Assembly (NCBI GenBank): GCA_963821375.1
Contig: CAWGDN010000002.1
Span: 808,546 to 872,545, forward strand
Direction of reading: 5' to 3'
Source: Vicinamibacterales bacterium
GTDB taxonomy: Bacteria; Acidobacteriota; Vicinamibacteria; Vicinamibacterales; JAMQPK01
Length of the DNA: 64,000 bases
The position numbers and the translations under genes were made by a program. The stretch's first letter is position 1; each line of letters starts with the position of its first letter. Positions 3,087 to 58,895 of the stretch are shown here, piece after piece. Under the pieces are notes generated by a model. It was not told where the DNA came from and searched no databases. It saw nothing but the letters and a program-made list of their open reading frames with translations.

Positions 3087-4343
3087 TCAGAGTCTGGTGA
3101 GCAGCCCACTCAACAAACCGACGAGCTCGCGGACGCTCACGATTCCGAATAGCAGCGCCGCAATCACAAGTCCCGTGTTGCTGACCGGGCCGCTGCGCCA
3201 TTCTTCAGGGACGCGATCAGAGTTGAGAAGCAAGAGAAGCGTGATGGCCAGGAACGGCATGAACAGCGAACCGAGCACGCCGTAAACCAGCACGAGTTGG
3301 AATGGGCGTCCGAGAAACAGCAGAAGAAGAGGAGGAAACGTCAGCCAGCACAAATAGAAGCGGAAGGCGGCGCTCCGCTCGCGCGGTACGTCAGGCGACG
3401 CGCCATGCGGCCGCAGGTGATCGACGAAGTCCGCAAACAGCATGCTCACGCCGTGCCAGACGCCCAACACGGACGTGAATGCCGCCGCCCAGAATCCCAA
3501 CAGAAACATGACGGCCACGCCTTGCCCGAACCGGTTGCGGAGAATTTCGGACAGATCAAGAAGGCCGCGATCGCCGTCCGTCAGCGCGATGCCCCTGCCG
3601 TGCAGCAACTCGGCGCCCACGACGAGCATCGACAGCACGAACAACCCGGTCACGGCGTACGCGATGGCGTTGTCGTATCGCATCACGCCGATCCAGCGCG
3701 AGTCCGTCCATCCCTTGGCCTGCACCCAGTAGCCGTACGCGGCCATGGTGATCGTCCCGCCGACGCCGCCGATCAAACCGAGCGTGTAGATACCTGACCC
3801 TGGCGGGAGAATCGGGGCCAGTCCACCGGCCACGTCGGCCGCGCGCGGAGGCATGGCCACGGCGAGAGCGACGGCCGTGAGAAACATCAGTCCGGCCAAC
3901 GCCGCCATCAACCGCTCGAACGATGGATAGCGATTGAACCAGACGAACACGAGGGAGAAGAGTCCAGAAGCAACCGCCCACACCCACAGAGGTGCAAGAG
4001 GGAAGAGCGCTTGGAGCGGCAGTGCACTCGCCGACATGCCGGCAGCGCCGTACACGAAGCCCCAGATCACGATGTAGACGCCGAAGTACGCGCGCGCCCA
4101 CATTCCCAGGCTGGCCCAGCCATCGAAGATCGTGCGCCCGGTGGCCAGATGCCAGCGACCCGTGCCTTCCGCAAGGATCGCTTTGACCACGCAACCGGCA
4201 ATGACGGCCCAGAGGAGCTGATAGCGAAAGCGCTCACCCGCGATGAGCGTGGCGATGAGGTCGCCGGATCCGACGCCAGTCGCCGCGACAACGATGCCGG
4301 GACCGATGAGCTGCCAGCGAGTACGCTGGCCGGAGGCAGGCAT
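3087..4343 (-). CDS. NRAMP-family divalent metal cation transporter
   Basis: Polytopic membrane protein with N-terminal GPGIVVAATGVGSGDLIATLIAGERFRYQLLW and Nramp-like organisation overall. Start moved to ATG 4343 (MPASGQ). Confidence 0.75.
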   Translation of the reverse strand: MPASGQRTRWQLIGPGIVVAATGVGSGDLIATLIAGERFRYQLLWAVIAGCVVKAILAEGTGRWHLATGRTIFDGWASLGMWARAYFGVYIVIWGFVYGAAGMSASALPLQALFPLAPLWVWAVASGLFSLVFVWFNRYPSFERLMAALAGLMFLTAVALAVAMPPRAADVAGGLAPILPPGSGIYTLGLIGGVGGTITMAAYGYWVQAKGWTDSRWIGVMRYDNAIAYAVTGLFVLSMLVVGAELLHGRGIALTDGDRGLLDLSEILRNRFGQGVAVMFLLGFWAAAFTSVLGVWHGVSMLFADFVDHLRPHGASPDVPRERSAAFRFYLCWLTFPPLLLLFLGRPFQLVLVYGVLGSLFMPFLAITLLLLLNSDRVPEEWRSGPVSNTGLVIAALLFGIVSVRELVGLLSGLLTRL

Positions 4344-4369
4344 GATGAGGAGTGGTGCGCGAGATCCTA

Positions 4370-5607
4370 TCAGAGCACGTGTTCTTTTCTGTGCGCTGCG
4401 AAATCCACGAACGTCTTGATCACGATGAGCAAGGCGAGTGCGCCGACGGTGCTGCCGAGTCCCATGATGATCCATCCGCCGAAGATCAACGTCAGGTGCA
4501 TCACGATGATCCGGTTGTAGGGCGCCTTCATCAACGCGTTCATCGTTGTCGTCGCGTACTCACGGCGCCCGAGGAAATTCGTTTGGTACGACACGCCGTG
4601 GCTGATGAACAGTGCAACCAGCGGTACCCACAGCGGCTCGAACGTAGACCGCAGTGCCACGAGAACGTGGGGCTCCGGACCCGTTGCTGCTATCCCTCGG
4701 ATGAAGAGCATATAGATGAAGAGGAAGTGCATCGCCATGAATCCGCCGAAGTGCGCGAAGAAGAACGGAATCGAAACGATGGCCAGCGCCTTGCCGACGA
4801 CCGCCATCTTCAGGGCGGTGTAGAACGCGATGGTCGCGCTCTCGGCCCAGTACAGCACGACGACCTCGGCGAGATCCCACCGAAGAACAGCACGCCGGCG
4901 AGTGGCAGCAGGTTGGCGGCAATGAGCGCGAGGCCGGACGCTGACGCGACCGATGGTGGCGCGTCGGCAGGGATTGGGGATTGGGAGCTGGAAGCTGGTG
5001 GCTGAGAGCTCAAGGCTGGCGGCTGAAAGCTGGGAGCCGGCGGCTGCGGGTTCGTCAGAGCCGCCACTCTTGCGGATTGCTCGATCGTGTTCATCAGCCG
5101 CTCGGCGTCCGATCGCGGCATGGCGTCGCCGATCCCCGACGTGCCCCCGCCGTAGTCGAACGCGAGACGCACGCGATCTCCAGCTCCCGCAGGCTCGAGC
5201 CGCACGTTGCGAAGCTTGGCGAGGTCGTACTCGATCGCGAGGTTCAACGGTCCGAGGGTCGGTAGGTGAACGAGCCTGTTTCCCTGAAGCCGTGCCGACT
5301 CTTTGCAGAACAAGAAGAGCACCGTCAGTCCACCGAGGACCGCAACGCCGACCGACCATCCCATCACCCAGAATCCCATGAACAGAAACGTCATGAGACC
5401 GAAGACATCGTCGATTGAGTGATTGGCGAATTGCGATATGGCGCTGACTTCGACCGCGAGGAAGATGGCGAACATGGCGCCAAGCACGAGACCGGCCGGC
5501 CTCATGTTCCGAGGGGGCAGTTGAAGCGGGATGCTGCCTGGTGCCTCATCACGCCATTGCACCCGAATTCGCTCGGGCCAGCCCTTGCGCACCGTGGTCG
5601 ACGTCAC
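4370..5607 (-). CDS. membrane protein with an N-terminal TM/soluble region, a 7-aa-repeat linker and a DUF6498-like C-terminal membrane domain; frame break near 4879
   Basis: Track ORF 4810..5607 ends ...LIAANLLPLAGVLFFG. Track ORF 4370..5359 continues WDLAEVVVLYWAESATIAFYT..., the typical DUF6498 start. One missing base in ggt(t)ggg would join them. Confidence 0.6.
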
Positions 5608-5643: not shown

Positions 5644-6501
5644 TCATTCGATCGCGTCGAGTCCTTCGGTCAATTCGATGTAGGTTCCCCATGGGTCGGT
5701 GATGAAGGCAATCGACGCCTTGAGGTCCGGCACCTGCCGGACATTGACCGCTTTGATGCCCATTGCTTCGAGCTTCTTGAGGAATTCGGCCAGATTGTCG
5801 ATCTCGAACCCCACGTGATCGACCACCCTGCCTTGCGTACCGACGACGGGAGTTGTCGAAGCCGAGAAGTTCAACGACACTCCGGGGAGCGTTGCCGTGA
5901 GGAAACGCCCGCCCGGCGCGCCGGCTTTCGCGCCGAACACTTTGACGTACCAGGCCTGCATCTCTTCGTTCTGCTGGCCGAAGAAGTGCACGTGTTGGAG
6001 CGCGACCGGCGCCTTCTGCTCAGGGATCTGAACGAGCTCGACCTTGAGATCGTCAGGACCCAGGACGAACGCAAGCGACCGGCCGGTGCCATTCGGATTG
6101 CCGGTGATGTCATCGTTCACCGGCCAGCCCTCGGGCGCACTTTCGCGCGTGACCATGCGGTAACCGCCGGCCCTCAGCTTGTCGATCACCGGCCGCAGGT
6201 TGGGCACCGAGAGGCCAAGATGATCGGCGGTTGTGCCCACCGAACCCCCCTTGGGAGCCTGCTGTCGAAGGAAGACCAGCACGTTCGGGAACTTGATGAT
6301 CTCCCGTCCGCCGATGGTGATCGGAACGCCCCCGAGGGTGTCGGCAAAGAACTTCTTGTGCTCTGCGGTATTCGTCGCGTTGACGTGATGGTGACCGTAG
6401 ACGACCGGACCGTCCTTCGCGACCGAAAGCTGTCCCGACGCCGGGCCAGCATTCAGAAGCAGGACCAAGCCGAGGATGGAGGTCAGCAGTCTTGATTTCA
6501 T
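5644..6501 (-). CDS. secreted two-domain VOC (glyoxalase/bleomycin-resistance/dioxygenase) family protein
   Basis: Signal peptide MKSRLLTSILGLVLLLNAGPASG, followed by two repeated VOC-like modules (HHHVNATN..., LQHVHFFG..., VDHVGFEID). Confidence 0.7.
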   Translation of the reverse strand: MKSRLLTSILGLVLLLNAGPASGQLSVAKDGPVVYGHHHVNATNTAEHKKFFADTLGGVPITIGGREIIKFPNVLVFLRQQAPKGGSVGTTADHLGLSVPNLRPVIDKLRAGGYRMVTRESAPEGWPVNDDITGNPNGTGRSLAFVLGPDDLKVELVQIPEQKAPVALQHVHFFGQQNEEMQAWYVKVFGAKAGAPGGRFLTATLPGVSLNFSASTTPVVGTQGRVVDHVGFEIDNLAEFLKKLEAMGIKAVNVRQVPDLKASIAFITDPWGTYIELTEGLDAIE

Positions 6502-6634
6502 AGAGTGTTCCTTTGTCGTGAGAGTTGCGGCGCCACTTTACAGCTTCCAGCTTTCAGCCGCCAGCTTCCAGCTCTAAGCCCCAACCCCTAGTCCCTAGCC
6601 CCTGACTGGAACGAAGCTGTTCTATGCTTGGGAG

Positions 6635-12201: not shown

Positions 12202-12960
12202 ATGACCAGACACATCCAGACCCGTCGGGAGGACGGCGTCGAACACCTCGTGCTGAATCGGCCCGAGGTGCGCAACGCGTTGAACGAGGAGGTGATCGCA
12301 CAGGTCACCGAGTGGGCGCGCGCGATCGCCAACGACGCCGACGTGCGAGCCGTGGTGATCTCCGGCGCCGGACCGTCCTTCTGCTCGGGCGCCGACCTTG
12401 CGTGGATGACGAAGATGGCCGGCTACACGCGCGACGAGAACATCCAGGATGCGCGCGCCGCGGCGGCCATGTTTCTCGCGCTCGACACGCTGCCGGTTCC
12501 CGTCATCGCGAGAGTGCACGGCGCCGCCGTTGGCGGCGGCGCTGGGCTGGCCGCGGTCGCCGACATCGCAGTCGCCGACGAAGCCGCGACATTTGCGTTT
12601 TCCGAAGTGAAGCTGGGATTGATCCCCGCCGTCATCGCCCCGTATGTGCTGGCGAAGGTCGGCATGTCGGCCGCCCGGGAGTTGTTTGTGACCGGACGCC
12701 GGTTCGACGCCGACCATGCGCGGCGGATCGGACTCGTGCACGTCGTTGCCGCCTCCGAGCAGCTGGATCGAACTGTCGAGACCTGCTTGTCCGAGCTCCG
12801 GGCGAACGGTCGAGAGGCAATGGCCGAGGCGAAGAAGCTGCTGCGCGCGCTCGCCGGACGGACGGCCGCAACGGTTGGAGAGATGACAGCAGAAGCGATT
12901 GCGATGCGGCGAGTCTCTGCGGAGGCGCAAGAAAGAATGAAGAGGTTCCTCAGTAAGTGA
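12202..12960 (+). CDS. enoyl-CoA hydratase/isomerase family (methylglutaconyl-CoA hydratase-like)
   Basis: Crotonase pattern: LNRPEVRNALN, ISGAGPSFCSGADL, HGAAVGGGAGLAAVADI, SEVKLGLIPA. Confidence 0.85.
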   Translation: MTRHIQTRREDGVEHLVLNRPEVRNALNEEVIAQVTEWARAIANDADVRAVVISGAGPSFCSGADLAWMTKMAGYTRDENIQDARAAAAMFLALDTLPVPVIARVHGAAVGGGAGLAAVADIAVADEAATFAFSEVKLGLIPAVIAPYVLAKVGMSAARELFVTGRRFDADHARRIGLVHVVAASEQLDRTVETCLSELRANGREAMAEAKKLLRALAGRTAATVGEMTAEAIAMRRVSAEAQERMKRFLSK

Positions 12961-13085
12961 TCAGTCGTCAGGCGACAGTCGTCAGTGATCAGTCCAAGTC
13001 GTCAGTCCCAGTCGACAGTCTCAGTCGGCAGTCGACAGTCGGCAGTCGACAGTCGTAGTCATCAGTCTCAGTCGATAGTCGCAGC
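12961..13085. repeat. left arm of a giant hairpin, 7-nt periodic CAGTCGN words
   Basis: AG dinucleotides counted from 12961 are spaced 7,7,7,7,6,7,6,7,6,7,7,7,7. A 32-nt stretch, cagtcgtcagtgatcagtccaagtcgtcagtc, is the exact reverse complement of a stretch in 13503..13621. Confidence 0.85.
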
Positions 13086-13121
13086 AGCTAGGGCGGCACG
13101 GGTTGTGCCTAGCCAACCCCC

Positions 13122-13502
13122 ATGTTGGCACGCTCGCTCGACGAATTGCTTGTCTATCGCAAGTCCCTGAACGCATCCGCAGCAATATCTGCCATCCTCG
13201 AACGGCGAGGAGTGCGCCGAGATTGGCCGCTTTGCAAACAAATGGGGTCGGCTGCTGGAGCTGTTGCGGCCAACATCGCGGAAGGATTTGGGCAGCAGAG
13301 CGATCGTCAGTTCGCCAAGTACCTCTTCATAGCCCGCGGCTCGTCGCACGAGATGCGGGCGCATCTCATGATCGCGCATAGCCGGAGCTACCTCGAAGAC
13401 GCGGAGTTGCGCGATCTGTCAAGCAAGTACGAAGAAATTGCCAAAATGTTGACCGGCCTCATCAAGTATTTGATTGCCAGCGATCGCCAGCAGCGCGGGT
13501 AG
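13122..13502 (+). CDS. four-helix-bundle protein (23S rRNA intervening-sequence protein family)
   Basis: 126 aa with AANIAEGFGQQSDRQFAKYLFIARGSSHEMRAHL and the overall family pattern. It lies in the loop between the two arms. Confidence 0.9.
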   Translation: MLARSLDELLVYRKSLNASAAISAILERRGVRRDWPLCKQMGSAAGAVAANIAEGFGQQSDRQFAKYLFIARGSSHEMRAHLMIAHSRSYLEDAELRDLSSKYEEIAKMLTGLIKYLIASDRQQRG

Positions 13503-13621
13503 CGACTGTCGACTGGGACTGACTACGACTGTTGACTAGCGACTCGACTGTGACTAGCGACTGAGACTGCTGACTGAGACTGACGACTTGGACTGATCAC
13601 TGACGACTGACGACTGTCGAC
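13503..13621. repeat. right arm of the giant hairpin, 7-nt periodic GACTGNC words
   Basis: Reverse complement of the left arm; contains gactgacgacttggactgatcactgacgactg. Confidence 0.85.
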
Positions 13622-13627
13622 TATAAT
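13601..13627 (+). promoter_or_regulatory. possible guaA promoter: TATAAT at 13622..13627, ending 7 nt before the ATG (leaderless-type spacing)
   Basis: A perfect TATAAT hexamer lies at the end of the hairpin arm, with TGAC-containing words upstream as weak -35 candidates. guaA ATG is at 13635. Confidence 0.3.
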
Positions 13628-13634
13628 TTGCTGC

Positions 13635-15447
13635 ATGTTAGGCATCGCGGTCCTCGATGCTGGCGGGCAGTACCTGTCATCTGCTCGCGCGGCGCGTGCG
13701 CGAATCGGGCGTGCAAAGCCATGTGTTGCCGATCGAAACCACCGGCGATCAGCTCGCCGGCGTCAGCGGCATCATCATCTCTGGCGGGCCGCGCAGCGTC
13801 ACCGAGGCCGGATCGCCTCGCGTCGATCCGTCCATCTTCTCGCTGAACGTTCCCATCCTCGGGATCTGCTACGGCCATCAACTGCTTGCGGCGACGCTGC
13901 CGGGCGGCGTGGTGAAGCGCAGCCACTCGCGCGAGTACGGCCTTGCGCGGTTTCGGCTTGCGCCGGATTCGAGCGCACACGACGCGCTCGGCTTGTTCGC
14001 CGGTGTACCCGAGTCGAGCCAGGTCTGGGTCAGCCACGGCGATTCAGTGGAGAGGCTGCCGGCAGGGCTCGACGCGCTCGGCTCGACCGACGACTGTGCT
14101 GTTGCGGCGATGGGCGATGCCGGCCGCCGCATCTACGGCGTGCAGTTTCACCCGGAAGTGACCCACACCGAATTCGGCGCTGTGCTGCTCGGCAACTTCG
14201 TGCGCCGTGTCTGCGGCTGCGCGGCGACATGGAAGCCGTCGTCGGCCGAGACCATCGAAGCGATCAAGGCCGACATACGGGCGCGAGTCGGTGCGTCAAA
14301 GAAGGTGCTGTTCTTCGTGAGCGGCGGCGTCGATTCATCGGTCGCGTACAAACTGTGTGCCGACGGGCTGGGCCAGGATCGCGTCCATGGCGTCTACGTC
14401 GACACCGGGTTCATGCGCAAGAACGAGTCGGCCGAGGTGATGACGTCGTACGAAAGGGCCGGCTTTCTCAATGTGCGCCTTCGCGATGCGTCAGTGGAGT
14501 TTCTCGCGGCCGTCGGGGACGAGACGAATCCAGAGACCAAACGGAAGCTGATCGGCGCGGCGTTCTTATCGGTGGAAAACGACGTGCTCGCCCATCTTCC
14601 GAGAGGCGAGTGGCTGCTCGGCCAGGGCACGATCTATCCCGATACGATCGAGTCGGGTGGCACGCGCGAGTCGGCGCTCATCAAGACACACCACAACCGC
14701 GTGCCCGAGCTGCTCGTGCGGGTTGCGGCCGGGGAGGTCGTGGAGCCGCTCGTGCAGTTCTATAAGGATGAAGTCCGCGAGATCGGGCGTGCGCTCGGCT
14801 TGCCGTCGCGGCTCATCGAGAAGCAGCCGTTTCCGGGTCCCGGCCTCGCCGTCAGATTTCTGTGCGCCGACGCACCGGCGGCATGGTCTCAGGACGCCAA
14901 GCTCGACGAGGTGGCGGCGCCATTCAAGCTTGGCGCGCGCGTGCTGCCGGTTCGCGGCGTCGGGGTTCAAGGGGACGAGCGCACGTATGCGCATACGGCG
15001 CTGCTCACCGGTGACTACGACGAGCAGCGCGTTGCCGAGCTCGCGCCGGCGATCACCAATGCCTGCCGGGACGTGAACCGCGTCGCGTTCTGGGCGGGAT
15101 CGAAAGGCACGATCGACGACTTCAAGGTCGAACCGACGACCACGTCCCGCGAAGGCCTCGACGTGCTGCGCGAAGCCGACGCGCGCGTGCGCGACATCCT
15201 CGCCGACTACGACACGCAGAAGCGCATCTGGCAATGTCCGGTGGTGATGCTGCCGCTCAAGCGCAACGGCGAGGCGTCCATCGCGATCAGGCCCGTCGAA
15301 TCGCATGACGGCATGACGGCGCAGTACGCCAAGCTGCCATGGCCCGTCATCGAACGCATCCGGGCGGCCGTGCTCGACGTGCCCGGCGTCGGCGCCCTCC
15401 TCTACGACGTCACGAACAAACCGCCGGCCACGATCGAGTGGGAGTAG
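13635..15447 (+). CDS. guaA: GMP synthase (glutamine-hydrolysing), long form; frame break near 13672
   Basis: MLGIAVLDAGGQY is in one frame. CHLLARRVRESGV..., ICYGHQLL, FHPEV, FFVSGGVDSSV, KTHHN and the C-terminal PPATIEWE are in the next. Removing one c from cagtacctgtcat restores QYCHL. Confidence 0.9.
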
Positions 15448-15450
15448 GCA

Positions 15451-15691
15451 GCCAGTCGTCAGTCATCAGTCGTCAGTGATCAGTCTCAGTCGCCAGTCCC
15501 AGTCACCAGTCTCAGTCAATAGTCGACAGTCGCTGTCAATGAGTCGCCCGCCACGAAATAGCGTGAAGCGAGCGCAACTCGCTGTGTCTAAAAGACTGCT
15601 GACTGCGACTTTCAATTTTGACTGTCGACTTACGACTTTGACTGTGACTGTCGACTGAGACTGATCACTGACGACTGACGACTGGTGACTC
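15451..15691. repeat. ORF-less long hairpin of the same CAGTCGN word family
   Basis: Left arm ~15451-15540 and right arm ~15596-15691 are reverse complements (gtcagtgatcagtctcagtcg...). They enclose a ~60-nt unique loop. Confidence 0.8.
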
Positions 15692-15936: not shown

Positions 15937-16016
15937 GCGGCGGTTCTCGGTTCTCGGTTCTCAGTTCTCAGTTCTCAGTTCGAACTGAGAACTGAGAACG
16001 CAGAACCTAGAACCGC
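15937..16016. repeat. hairpin of GTTCTCA/TGAGAAC heptads with a TTCGAA apex (15979..15984) between convergent genes
   Basis: gcggttctcggttctcggttctcagttctcagttctcagttcgaactgagaactgagaacgcagaacctagaaccgc. It touches TAG 15933-15935 on one side and CTA 16018-16020 on the other. Confidence 0.85.
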
Positions 16017-16450: not shown

Positions 16451-17996
16451 ATGCTGAACCTCTCCGCAGTACTCGAGCAGCACGCACGGCGCAGGCCGCA
16501 GGCCGAGGCGATCGCGTGCGGTTCGACGCGCCTGTCGTACGGCGAGCTCGATGGCCTGGCAAATCGCATCGCTGGAGGACTCGCCGCATCCGGCATCCGC
16601 CGTGGCGACCACGTTGCGCTGCTGAGTCCTAATCTTCCGCAGTTTCCCGCGATCTACTTCGGCATCCTCAAGACTGGCGCGACCGTCGTGCCGCTCAACG
16701 TGCTGCTCAAGCCGCGAGAGATCGCGTACCACTTGCGCGACAGCGACGCGAAAGCTGCTGTTCTGTTTTCAGGGAACGCCGGAGCTTCCCATGGCGCAGG
16801 CGGCGAAGGCCGCCGTCGACGTCGTGCCCTCCTGCTCCGAGCTCGTCGTCATCGGCGGCAGCCCCGATGACGATGCGACGACGCTCGATCGATTTGTGGC
16901 GGGCCATCCGCCGACATTCGATACCTGCGACACGAGTCCGAACGATACGGCCGTCATGCTCTATACCTCGGGCACGACGGGACAACCGAAGGGCGCCGAG
17001 CTGACGCATCTCAACATGACGATGAATGCGATGGTGTCGGCGGAGTTGTGCGCCTCGTCACACGATGGCACCGGCCGGCACGCGACCGCAGTGACGCTTC
17101 CGCTGTTCCATGCCACGGCACAGACCGCGCAGATGCTCGCGTACCTCCATCTTGGCGGCAGTCTCGTGCTGCTGTCGCGATTCGACCCCGCGGCGCTGCT
17201 GAACGCGATCATCAGCGAACGCGTCACGCATTGGGTGGGCGTGCCGACGATGTACTGGATGCTGCTGAAGCATGCGAGAGAGCATGGCGTCGATGTCTCG
17301 AAGGCGGCAGCGAGTCTGAAGCTCGTCGTCTCGGGCGGCGCGCCGATGCCGGTGGAGCTGATGAAGGACTTCGAGCACACCTTCGGCGTCCGCATTATCG
17401 AGGGCTACGGACTCTCGGAGACGGCGCCCGTGGCCACCTTCAATCATCTCGATCGTCCCTCGAAGCCCGGCACGGTGGGCCAGCCGCTCTTTGCCGTGGA
17501 CGTGATGATCGTCGATGACAAGGACGAGCCGGTACAGACTGGGACGCCTGGCGAGGTCGTCATTCGCGGTCACAACGTGATGAAGGGCTACTACAAGCAG
17601 CCCGAAGCGACGGCCGAAGCGATGCGGAACGGCTGGTTCCACACGGGCGACATCGGCACGCTCGACGCCGACGGCTATCTTTGCATCGTCGATCGCAAGA
17701 AGGACATGATCCTGCGCGGCGGGTTCAACGTGTATCCGCGCGAGCTCGAAGAGGTGATGCTGACGCACCCGGCCGTGTCGCTCGTGGCCGTCATCGGCGT
17801 TCCCGACGAGCGGCTGGGCGAGGAAGTAAAGGCGTTCGTCGTCAAGAAACCCGGAACCGACATCAGCGAGGACGAGCTGCAGGCCTGGTGCCGGGACCAG
17901 CTAGCTGACTACAAGTATCCCCGCCATATCGAGTTCCGCACGGAGCTGCCGACGAGCGCGACGGGAAAGATCCTGAAGAGAGAACTTCGCGGGTGA
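16451..17996 (+). CDS. AMP-dependent acyl-CoA synthetase/ligase (long-chain fatty acid-CoA ligase-like); frame break near 16780
   Basis: MLYTSGTTGQPKGA, GYGLSETAP, GWFHTGDIG, PTSATGKILKREL. The N-terminal 110 aa are in a different frame. Confidence 0.85.
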
Positions 17997-18075
17997 GTCA
18001 GTTCTCAGTTCTACGTTCTCCGTTCTCAGTTCGAACCCAGAACCCAGAACCCAGAACTGACGAACTGACGAACTT
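17997..18075. repeat. second GTTCTCA-family hairpin with a TTCGAA apex (18030..18035)
   Basis: gtcagttctcagttctacgttctccgttctcagttcgaacccagaacccagaacccagaactgacgaactgacgaac. It starts directly after the ligase stop (17994-17996). Confidence 0.75.
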
Positions 18076-19082: not shown

Positions 19083-19206
19083 CGGGTTTCCTGGTGGCCC
19101 GGAACCTGTGCAATCTCAGTCTATGAACCGCGTCAGGGCCGGAAGGCAGCAGCGCTAAGTAGTCCCTGAGCTGTGCCGCAGGCCCTCCGGGCCTCTAAGG
19201 AACCCG
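19083..19206 (+). ncRNA. ffs: signal recognition particle RNA (small bacterial 4.5S type)
   Basis: Conserved helix-8 core GUCAGGGCC-GGAA-GGCAGCAGC at 19132-19150. Flanking pairings: ggcccgga 19096-19103 with tccgggcc 19186-19193, and cgggtttcc 19083-19091 with ggaacccg 19199-19206. The position just upstream of dnaX is the classical one. Confidence 0.75.
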
Positions 19207-23806: not shown

Positions 23807-23889
23807 CAGGGGCGAGGGGTAAGCGGCAAGGGGCAAGCGGCGTTCCTCGTTACCCCTTACCCCTTACCCCTTATCCCTTACCCCTACTG
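23807..23889. repeat. hairpin of GGGGTAA/TTACCCC heptads between convergent genes
   Basis: caggggcgaggggtaagcggcaaggggcaagcgg ... taccccttaccccttaccccttatcccttacccctactg. Flanked by TAG 23799-23801 and overlapping CTA 23884-23886. Confidence 0.8.
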
Positions 23890-24385: not shown

Positions 24386-24460
24386 TCCTCAGTAGCTCAA
24401 CGGCAGAGCATCCGGCTGTTAACCGGAGGGTTGCTGGTTCGAATCCAGCCTGAGGAGCCA
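24386..24460 (+). tRNA. tRNA-Asn (anticodon GUU)
   Basis: Cloverleaf read by hand: acceptor TCCTCAG/CTGAGGA, D stem GCTC/GAGC, anticodon stem TCCGG/CCGGA with loop CTGTTAA, T stem GCTGG/CCAGC with loop TTCGAAT, 3' GCCA. Confidence 0.95.
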
Positions 24461-58750: not shown

Positions 58751-58895
58751 GGTAAGAGGGGCAAGGGGCCGGCGCAAGGGACAAGGGACAAGGGGCGAGG
58801 GGTAAGGGGTAAGGGGCGAGGGATGAGGAATGAAGTTAAAAGGCTTCTCCTCACCCCTTTCCCCTTGTCCCTCGCCCCTTTCGTGTTTCTCCTCC
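58751..58895. repeat. asymmetric hairpin of GGGGNAA heptads (nine G-runs) and its C-rich complement
   Basis: ggtaagaggggcaaggggccggcgcaagggacaagggacaaggggcgaggggtaaggggtaaggggcgaggg ... ctcctcacccctttccccttgtccctcgccccttt. Confidence 0.8.

Follow-up and report, generated by a model that had tools for sequence, protein, structure and literature searches.

Results

A PF05635 gene lies between two mirrored heptad arrays

The window, that is, the whole 64,000-nt stretch of DNA that was analysed, carries a short ORF between an enoyl-CoA hydratase gene (12202-12960) on the left and guaA on the right, and this ORF is flanked by two tandem arrays of 7-nt units. An earlier note on this DNA had placed the ORF between these two genes, and both neighbours were verified. 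The features considered here are the following:

12961..13086, + strand: left arm, about 17 tandem heptads with the consensus TCAGTCG (CAGTCGN); TRF period 7, 17 copies; inverted pair; register test
12976..13007, + strand: 32-nt segment, exact reverse complement of 13578-13609; exact match check
13095..13109, + strand: GG-N10-GC motif (GGCAC-N5-GTGCC), GGCACGGGTTGTGCC, located 13 nt before the ATG; spacing of 12-13 nt to the start codon conserved
13122..13502, + strand: four-helix-bundle protein gene (PF05635 / TIGR02436), 126 aa; profile and fold match
13503..13622, + strand: right arm, about 17 heptads with the consensus CGACTGT/CGACTGA; TRF period 7; mirror copy of the left arm
13578..13609, + strand: 32-nt segment, exact reverse complement of 12976-13007; exact match check
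13600..13627, + strand: sigma-70-like promoter for guaA, with a -35-like CTGACG, a 16-nt spacer and a perfect TATAAT
15454..15690, no strand assigned: arms-only palindrome with the CAGTCGN word, including CAGTGATCAGTC; 95-nt loop, no ORF

The protein encoded by ORF 13122-13502 matched both PF05635 (E 3.9e-24; 85.4 bits against a curated cut-off of 33.8) and TIGR02436 (E 1.8e-24; 86.1 bits against a cut-off of 24), so the family call made for it in the earlier note stands. The family was first found inside Leptospira rRNA, in 1993, and PF05635 has about 44,000 clusters when grouped at 50% identity. The AlphaFold model of the protein (pLDDT 96.8) consists of four long helices forming a four-helix bundle, for which Foldseek returned 2GSC (TM 0.84-0.92) and 2RLD (TM 0.79-0.92) as the top matches, followed by the DGR protein Avd (4DWL) and DGR ribonucleoprotein structures (TM 0.74-0.87). 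A profile built from 30 relatives also found 2GSC (Xanthomonas XCC0516) among the PDB sequences, at E 8e-29, as well as 2RLD. The signature residues NIAEG, ARGSxxE and MLTGL are present; seven positions (Q40, I52, E54, G55, S74, E77 and L113) have the same residue in all of 30 diverse PF05635 members, the window protein included, and the NIAEG and ARGSxxE motifs are nearly invariant throughout the family. The protein is basic (pI 9.6), and its modelled fold, its charge and its invariant polar motifs would be compatible with nucleic-acid binding. The GC3 of the gene is 0.69, compared to 0.81-0.83 in the neighbouring genes. Comparison with intact orthologs gave dN/dS values of 0.07-0.15, a substitution pattern showing that the gene is under purifying selection in either orientation of the loop. 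PADLOC returned no match.

The left arm begins immediately 3' of the hydratase stop codon (12958-12960) and the right arm immediately 3' of the stop codon of the ORF, and together they occupy the whole spacer around the ORF, from the hydratase gene to guaA. The longest ungapped inverted pair (12963-13033 / 13552-13622) spans 71 nt with 89% complementarity, and a gapped alignment of the arms extends over about 130 nt with 110 Watson-Crick positions, in agreement with the reverse-complementary arms of about 120 nt first described. The 32-nt inverted match quoted in that description is indeed exact, and each of its two segments, 12976-13007 and 13578-13609, occurs once in the window. Since this exact pair includes the irregular units CAGTGAT and CAGTCCAAGTCGT (within 12976-13007), the order of the units is itself mirrored. 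Moreover, a register shift of 7 nt reduced the complementarity of the arms from 0.89 to 0.46-0.51, indicating that they are mirrored copies and more than two arrays of the same word.

The arms are able to form a stem of about 120 bp with each other. The minimum free energy of RNA 12945-13640 is -358.5 kcal/mol, compared to -257 +/- 6 for shuffled sequences (z = -15.8), and the folded RNA shows a near-continuous long stem enclosing the ORF. The arm mismatches comprise 23 G·U on the gene sense strand, 17 on the antisense strand (A·C) and 22 transversions. A test for wobble bias among these mismatches detected no surplus of G·U relative to A·C or to transversions, so the arms give no specific pointer to selection on an RNA duplex. 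The arms matched no Rfam family, and region 12900-13700 had no Rfam match even at E up to 1. The 64-kb window contains no rRNA gene; only an SRP RNA and one tRNA were found.

Promoter-like signals in the loop and at the right arm

The loop carries, 12-13 nt before the start codon of the PF05635 gene, a motif with the consensus GG[C/T]A[C/T]-N5-[G/A]TGCC. This GG-N10-GC motif was found in all nine orthologous cassette loci (in eight by pattern scan and in one, L152, by reading of the sequence), and the nucleotides between it and the start codon are variable. It is also present in four loci at other genomic sites (L009, L011, L016 and L151). A loose form of the pattern has about 17 matches in the two window strands (128 kb in total). 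The motif resembles a sigma-54 -24/-12 element, and its distance to the start codon would suit a nearly leaderless mRNA. Its -12 element reads G/A-TGCC rather than TTGCA, it doubles as a small palindrome (in the likeness of a 5-bp hairpin or an operator), and the copies located next to the GCS2-family gene (see below) have AGGAGG between the motif and the ATG. Because of the palindrome and the intervening AGGAGG we keep the sigma-54 promoter as an uncertain reading of this motif.

The sigma-70-like promoter of guaA has its -35-like CTGACG inside the right arm and its TATAAT at the outer arm boundary, with the guaA start codon 6-7 nt downstream of the TATAAT, a geometry expected for a leaderless mRNA. 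The arrangement GTCGAC-TATAAT-N6-7-start is kept in L001, L003, L005, L006, L061 and L152, regardless of the orientation of the loop, and also in L071, where the site is empty.

Other heptad palindromes in the window

The arms had previously been assigned to a family of heptad-word palindromes, and palindromes of the same kind were found elsewhere in the window. One of them (15454-15690) uses the same word as the cassette and lies directly 3' of the guaA stop codon, about 2 kb from the cassette. Its position is conserved in the relatives and its word differs between them, whereas the cassette arms keep theirs; no similarity was detected between its loop and the inner ends of the cassette. Besides the cassette, six heptad palindromes in the window begin immediately 3' of a stop codon; five of these have a short loop or none, and the sixth encloses a glyoxalase-family gene. 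Altogether, at least four different heptad words are present in the window, against one PF05635 gene.

Gene and arms are present or absent together, and the loop is inverted in most relatives

The closest homologs of the window protein are from Vicinamibacterales-like Acidobacteriota. Nine loci, with the window counted, have the gene together with the arms at the hydratase-guaA site: the window, L001, L003, L005, L006, L008, L010, L061 and L152. In L008 an IS256-type transposase interrupts the gene, and in L010 the gene is frameshifted. A metagenome scan with the guaA N-terminus retrieved mostly distant guaA genes and one close relative, L071, the remainder serving as a negative control. In L071 the order carboxyltransferase-hydratase-guaA is kept, and the 130-nt spacer contains neither the gene nor heptad arms. 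The joint presence in nine loci and the joint absence in this one show that gene and arms behave as one unit, as had been proposed, and the same unit was found at other sites too (next section).

Only in the window and in L001 is the gene co-oriented with its neighbours; in seven of the nine hydratase-guaA loci it is antisense. Among the latter is the closest relative, L152, whose protein is 92% identical to that of the window and whose flanking DNA is 83-86% identical. The L001 protein, encoded by the other co-oriented copy, is closer to the antisense-oriented relatives than to the window protein, and the loop must therefore have flipped at least twice. Arm length varies among the hydratase-guaA relatives; in L152 the two arms measure about 35 and about 85 nt. 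The words GTTAGTC and GTTGGTC are found in both arms of L003 and essentially nowhere else. Together, these comparisons of sequence show that the arms evolve in concert as mirrored copies, and that the loop has been flipped at least twice among close relatives. Mirrored arms, concerted evolution and flips are expected when inverted DNA repeats recombine with each other or undergo gene conversion. Cross-species alignment of the arms was discarded as a test for concerted evolution, since any AGTCGNC array aligns to any other; because these scores are confounded, the register shift and the lineage-specific words were used instead.

PF05635 genes in many phyla are flanked by inverted heptad arrays

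Within the Acidobacteriota, the same AGTCGNC arms are found with the motif and the gene at other genomic sites. A second conserved site has a GCS2-family gene on one side and a molybdopterin oxidoreductase gene on the other, and L009 and L016 represent further insertion sites. We then scanned one genome per species and collected 67 PF05635 loci from many phyla, of which 64, from more than 25 lineages, were scored for flanking inverted repeats by aligning the upstream flank of the gene with the downstream flank in reverse complement, with 395 control placements. The median score was 19.2 for the PF05635 loci and 9.5 for the controls (Mann-Whitney p 2e-25), and 43 of the 64 loci exceeded the control 99th percentile. 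A period-7 array was present on at least one side in 34/64 PF05635 loci and in 4/395 control placements (Fisher p 3e-29). This enrichment was limited to period 7 and its harmonic 14, other periods in the range 4-13 being at background. Arrays were rare elsewhere in the same loci, and none of the 80 guaA-selected control loci had an array upstream of guaA. In an independent sample of viral contigs, the inverted repeats passed the 99th-percentile threshold in 26 of 38 loci, and heptads were present in 15 of the 38. The expectation in the earlier note that other copies of the family would be flanked by inverted arms thus holds for the majority; about one third of the PF05635 loci had no detectable arms, and a few, such as L018, carry direct rather than inverted arrays.

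The heptad words found in other groups were:

Saprospiraceae: GCCGTTA
Pirellulaceae: CGGTTTT
Armatimonadota: AGCTTTC
Thermodesulfobacteriota: AATCGTG
second Acidobacteriota clade: AGGTGGT
Ectothiorhodospiraceae: CAGTTAT

Across the sample the arms vary strongly in length and sequence, those of the window being the longest. None of 60 PF05635 loci checked for their position lies inside an rRNA gene, and some copies adjoin tmRNA or tRNA genes. With 0/60 in rRNA and about two thirds flanked by inverted repeats, the cassette outside rRNA is the rule and the rRNA intervening sequence (IVS) the special case. The locus had originally been described as an IVS architecture transplanted into another context, and these results indicate that the direction of that proposal was wrong.

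Discussion

A proposed self-contained cassette

The results described above are best explained if this locus represents one member of a widespread class of self-contained cassettes, in which a PF05635 gene with its own promoter-like motif is placed between mirror arrays of heptamers, and if the ORF-containing rRNA IVS is the same cassette inserted in an rRNA helix. We give this reading a probability of about 0.5. It is as DNA that the arms would be maintained and would recombine, a process that would both keep the copies mirrored and flip the loop. The GG-N10-GC motif may give the gene an autonomous, nearly leaderless expression of the sigma-54 type. A transcript running across both arms would form a duplex of about 120 bp that could be cut by RNase III, by extension from experiments with rRNA IVSs, and such a cut would uncouple the cassette from its neighbours, so that it could be tolerated between the end of an operon and guaA, or within rRNA. 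Thus, the cassette would be harmless to its neighbours wherever it is located, through an RNase III-type duplex formed on read-through. The basic, Avd-like protein would bind nucleic acid, with the heptad arrays as its most likely ligand.

Two suggestions of the earlier note survive in part. The unit had been likened to an IVS, as a stem with an ORF in its loop, and a processed RNA element had been suggested; the relationship to the IVS stands, and the release of the sense ORF as a processed transcript is weakened, since the gene is antisense in 7/9 loci and has its own promoter-like motif, and no bias towards G·U is seen in the arms. Given the antisense position of the gene in most relatives, a transcript that holds the sense ORF inside a closed loop would not be the common case. 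That the unit is mobile agrees with its several insertion sites and with the difference in presence between relatives, and is at odds with its long vertical persistence and with the lack of a transposase and of a target-site duplication.

Relationship to known elements

The ORF-containing 23S rRNA IVSs of Leptospira, Coxiella burnetii, Brucella and Haemophilus, a class defined by insertion in helix 9, 25 or 45 of the 23S rRNA gene, resemble the window cassette in that a protein of the same family is encoded in the loop, enclosed by inverted repeats able to form a stem. The window cassette differs in being located outside any rRNA gene, between protein-coding genes, in its arms, which measure about 120 nt and consist wholly of heptads (about 28 bp in the IVS), and in having its own promoter-like motif and an orientation that varies relative to the flanking transcription among relatives. 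In addition, the window gene is under strong purifying selection, while the Coxiella ORF is decaying. In the Coxiella IVS, RNase III cuts in the stem of the terminal inverted repeats, and two to four GACAGAT heptads, variable in copy number between strains, lie upstream of the ORF at the RNase III site/5' stem (PMC4990558). The published demonstrations of RNase III excision concern rRNA copies only.

Intergenic arrays of tandem 7-nt units, often adjoining start or stop codons as in the window, are known as the cyanobacterial STRR and from Xanthomonas, Nostoc and the Beggiatoaceae; their length varies among relatives and their position is kept (PMC4692102, PMC4679880). The Xanthomonas GGGAATC and Nostoc GGGGATT arrays have no known function, and each Xanthomonas genome has 70-75 convergent pairs of such arrays (PMC4692102); convergent, that is inverted, pairs are a further likeness to the window. 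In the Beggiatoaceae, TAACTGA heptamers lie next to start codons, and BOGUAY_0693 is a 29-copy Beggiatoa protein (PMC4679880). The TAACTGA word and the CGACTGA of the window have ACTGA in common. Unlike the published arrays, which the earlier studies tied to no protein family, those described here bracket a specific gene family. One Xanthomonas array does abut a family member: repeat #15 (GGGAATC) lies between bccP and XCC0516 and overlaps the XCC0516 start (PMC4692102, supplementary table), and XCC0516 is the crystallised PF05635 homolog 2GSC. In the literature we could search, which excluded most subscription journals, a search for a link between the PF05635 family and heptamer arrays yielded only the remark on heptameric repeats in Coxiella, and the general association therefore appears to be unreported there.

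The palindromes of the REP/BIME and MITE type are likewise abundant intergenic inverted repeats located after stop codons, with copies that do and do not carry cargo. The arms in the window, however, are tandem heptads whose word differs by site and lineage; no RAYT or transposase partner was identified for them, and no target-site duplication was seen. As to the protein, Avd has a homologous four-helix-bundle fold and is also small and basic; it binds nucleic acid and reverse transcriptase. The window protein differs in belonging to the PF05635 core and not to the bAvd-like family, and neither a reverse transcriptase nor template/variable repeats are found nearby.

Alternative explanations

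Several observations could also be accommodated if a pentamer of the four-helix-bundle protein bound the heptamer arrays or helped to generate them, the arrays at its own gene being autoregulatory or cis-acting, the arms-only palindromes further targets and the RNA stem incidental. The heptad words follow the clades of the protein rather than the taxonomy of the hosts: the word is AGTCGNC in Acidobacteriota copies with 38-92% identity to the query, and AGGTGGT in Acidobacteriota and Terriglobia copies with 30-37% identity. An arms-only palindrome with the same word 2 kb away, a protein that is basic and Avd-like, motifs that are nearly invariant family-wide and arm mismatches free of RNA-type bias would all fit. 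However, plain co-inheritance of gene and arms predicts the tracking of words by clades equally well, the window has at least four words for a single PF05635 gene, and the palindrome that follows guaA has a word that differs from one relative to the next, that of the cassette arms being constant; we consider this explanation possible but rather unlikely. A stronger version, which we regard as an unlikely extension, would make PF05635 proteins and heptanucleotide arrays the two halves of one system. By analogy with Avd, a homolog that acts on a nucleic-acid template together with a polymerase, the protein would recognise, and possibly generate or maintain, arrays of its cognate word, with the cassette as the source and the arms-only palindromes and ORF-less rRNA IVSs as products or targets.

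If the association were instead a coincidence, the arms being generic terminator-like or REP-like intergenic hairpins one of which happens to hold a gene with no functional link to it, then palindromes like the six others in the window would be expected, five of them short-looped or loopless and one around a glyoxalase-family gene, as would the abundance of Xanthomonas arrays with no reported PF05635 link (PMC4692102). We disfavour this explanation and consider it improbable, since the association extends over more than 25 lineages, each with its own words, and to the viral-contig collection; arrays are rare elsewhere in the same loci and in the control loci; arms, motif and gene move together to other sites; and L071, the sole relative that does not have the gene, does not have the arms either. 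We are just as sceptical of a transposon-like element in which the arms would be terminal inverted repeats of an autonomous cassette, the arms-only palindromes MITE-like derivatives and the four-helix-bundle protein the mediator of movement. Ralph and McClelland suggested such an origin in 1993 with regard to the rRNA IVS (as cited in PMC4990558), and it would account for the several insertion sites with the same arms, for the difference in presence between relatives, for the copies adjoining tmRNA or tRNA genes and for the arms-only copies with the same word. Nevertheless, relatives with protein identities as low as about 61% still have the cassette at one and the same site, its sole ORF is the four-helix-bundle gene, with no recognisable transposase or recombinase fold, its boundaries (AAGTGA|TCAGTCG and GTCGAC|TATAAT) show no target-site duplication, its arms are highly variable in length and sequence, and the loop of the arms-only copy is unlike the inner ends of the cassette. 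The Avd-like fold (TM 0.74-0.87 to 4DWL and the DGR ribonucleoprotein structures) and a weak PF22296 match could suggest that the gene is the Avd accessory protein of a DGR remnant. Yet the PF22296 score is 18 bits, below the 40-bit cut-off, the syntenic neighbours are metabolic and no template/variable repeat pair was seen, which makes this origin hardly credible; it was rejected, since the Pfam annotations of the syntenic neighbours in L001, L003 and L152, covering about 6 kb to the left and to the right, contain no RVT family.

Implications

These findings join two puzzles, a family with no assigned function, PF05635, and the heptamers long noted as over-represented in bacterial intergenic DNA, for which no mechanism has been proposed (PMC4692102, PMC4679880), in one testable hypothesis. 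PF05635 genes and heptamer arrays are co-located across phyla, and gene and arms behave as one inherited, invertible unit. In this view the ORF-containing rRNA IVS becomes a general cassette that has landed at a special site. Should protein and arrays in fact be halves of one system, this would explain both the function of the IVS proteins, a puzzle for 30 years, and the excess of heptamers in bacterial genomes. Tractable carriers exist in Nostoc and in Xanthomonas campestris, whose XCC0516 has a solved crystal structure. A GGGGATT word is also present in the window, at 4970-4985.

Variation at the hydratase-guaA site and downstream of guaA

In several relatives of the Vicinamibacterales bacterium, the cassette (the four-helix-bundle gene and its mirrored arms of 7-nt units, or heptads) lies between the enoyl-CoA hydratase gene and guaA, as it does in the window. 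In the relative L008, the orthologous four-helix-bundle gene is interrupted by a 1.35-kb insertion (3246-4596) encoding a Mutator/IS256-family transposase (PF00872, E 6.5e-37). A further relative, L071, has an empty site (2340-2500), in which the carboxyltransferase-hydratase-guaA order is retained with a spacer of 130 nt. This spacer keeps only TTCGACAGTCGG 3' of the stop codon and CTCGAC-TATAAT ahead of guaA; between them lies a different nested hairpin, GGAGAAAGCCGACC...GGTCGGCCTTCTCC. Relative to guaA of L001 and L152, that of the window (region 13635-13680) has one additional C near 13674; either the extra base is an error of sequencing or assembly, or the N terminus is really truncated.

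Another palindrome lies directly 3' of guaA, at a position kept among relatives while the heptad word differs:

Window 15454-15690, CAGTCGN (also in L061)
L001 8290-8550, CAGTCGN
L003 3780-4095, GGGCTTA
L006 780-1090, GGAGTCN
L010 700-1020, palindrome absent

A fixed position with a changing word implies that the arrays are quickly turned over or replaced at one site.

Heptad palindromes and structured RNAs elsewhere in the window

Five more inverted heptad pairs were located in the window:

4975-5037 and 6541-6580, arms with the words AGCTGGA and GGGGATT, 85-87% complementary
15940-16016, short-loop palindrome
17983-18075, short-loop palindrome
23808-23885, short-loop palindrome
58773-58883, short-loop palindrome

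The 1.5-kb segment between the arms of the first pair contains a glyoxalase-family gene (5644-6501, minus strand), and the cargo of heptad palindromes is therefore not limited to the four-helix-bundle gene. The four short-loop palindromes, which use the words CAGTTCT (twice) and AGGGGCA (twice), all lack a U-tract and start no more than a few bases from a stop codon; they resemble the ordinary 3'-end hairpins of this genome. Rfam matches over the window were confined to the bacterial small SRP RNA (19096-19196) and one tRNA gene (24386-24457).

Family loci in other lineages

The arrays accompanying the four-helix-bundle family (PF05635/TIGR02436) vary among genomes. At some loci one heptad word stands on both sides in direct, not inverted, orientation (GTGAATC, in Bipolaricaulota), and at others the arrays reach to 0-4 nt from the start codon, similar to the TAACTGA repeats of Beggiatoaceae, whose arrays are reported near start codons. 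Loci of these two kinds are:

L018 1-190 and 548-640
L039 1620-1730

Many family representatives in the protein library, as called, carry 35-40 additional N-terminal residues (lengths 155-167, match from residue 35-44), which may result from gene callers running ORFs into upstream heptad arrays. The flanking inverted arms of an Omnitrophota locus (L033, about 2925-2965) consist of 6-nt units (AGTGNN), not 7-nt ones. In two unrelated lineages a tmRNA gene directly adjoins the family gene (L020 3321-3670; L062 3451-3862), and tRNA genes adjoin several other copies (L054, L056, L058).
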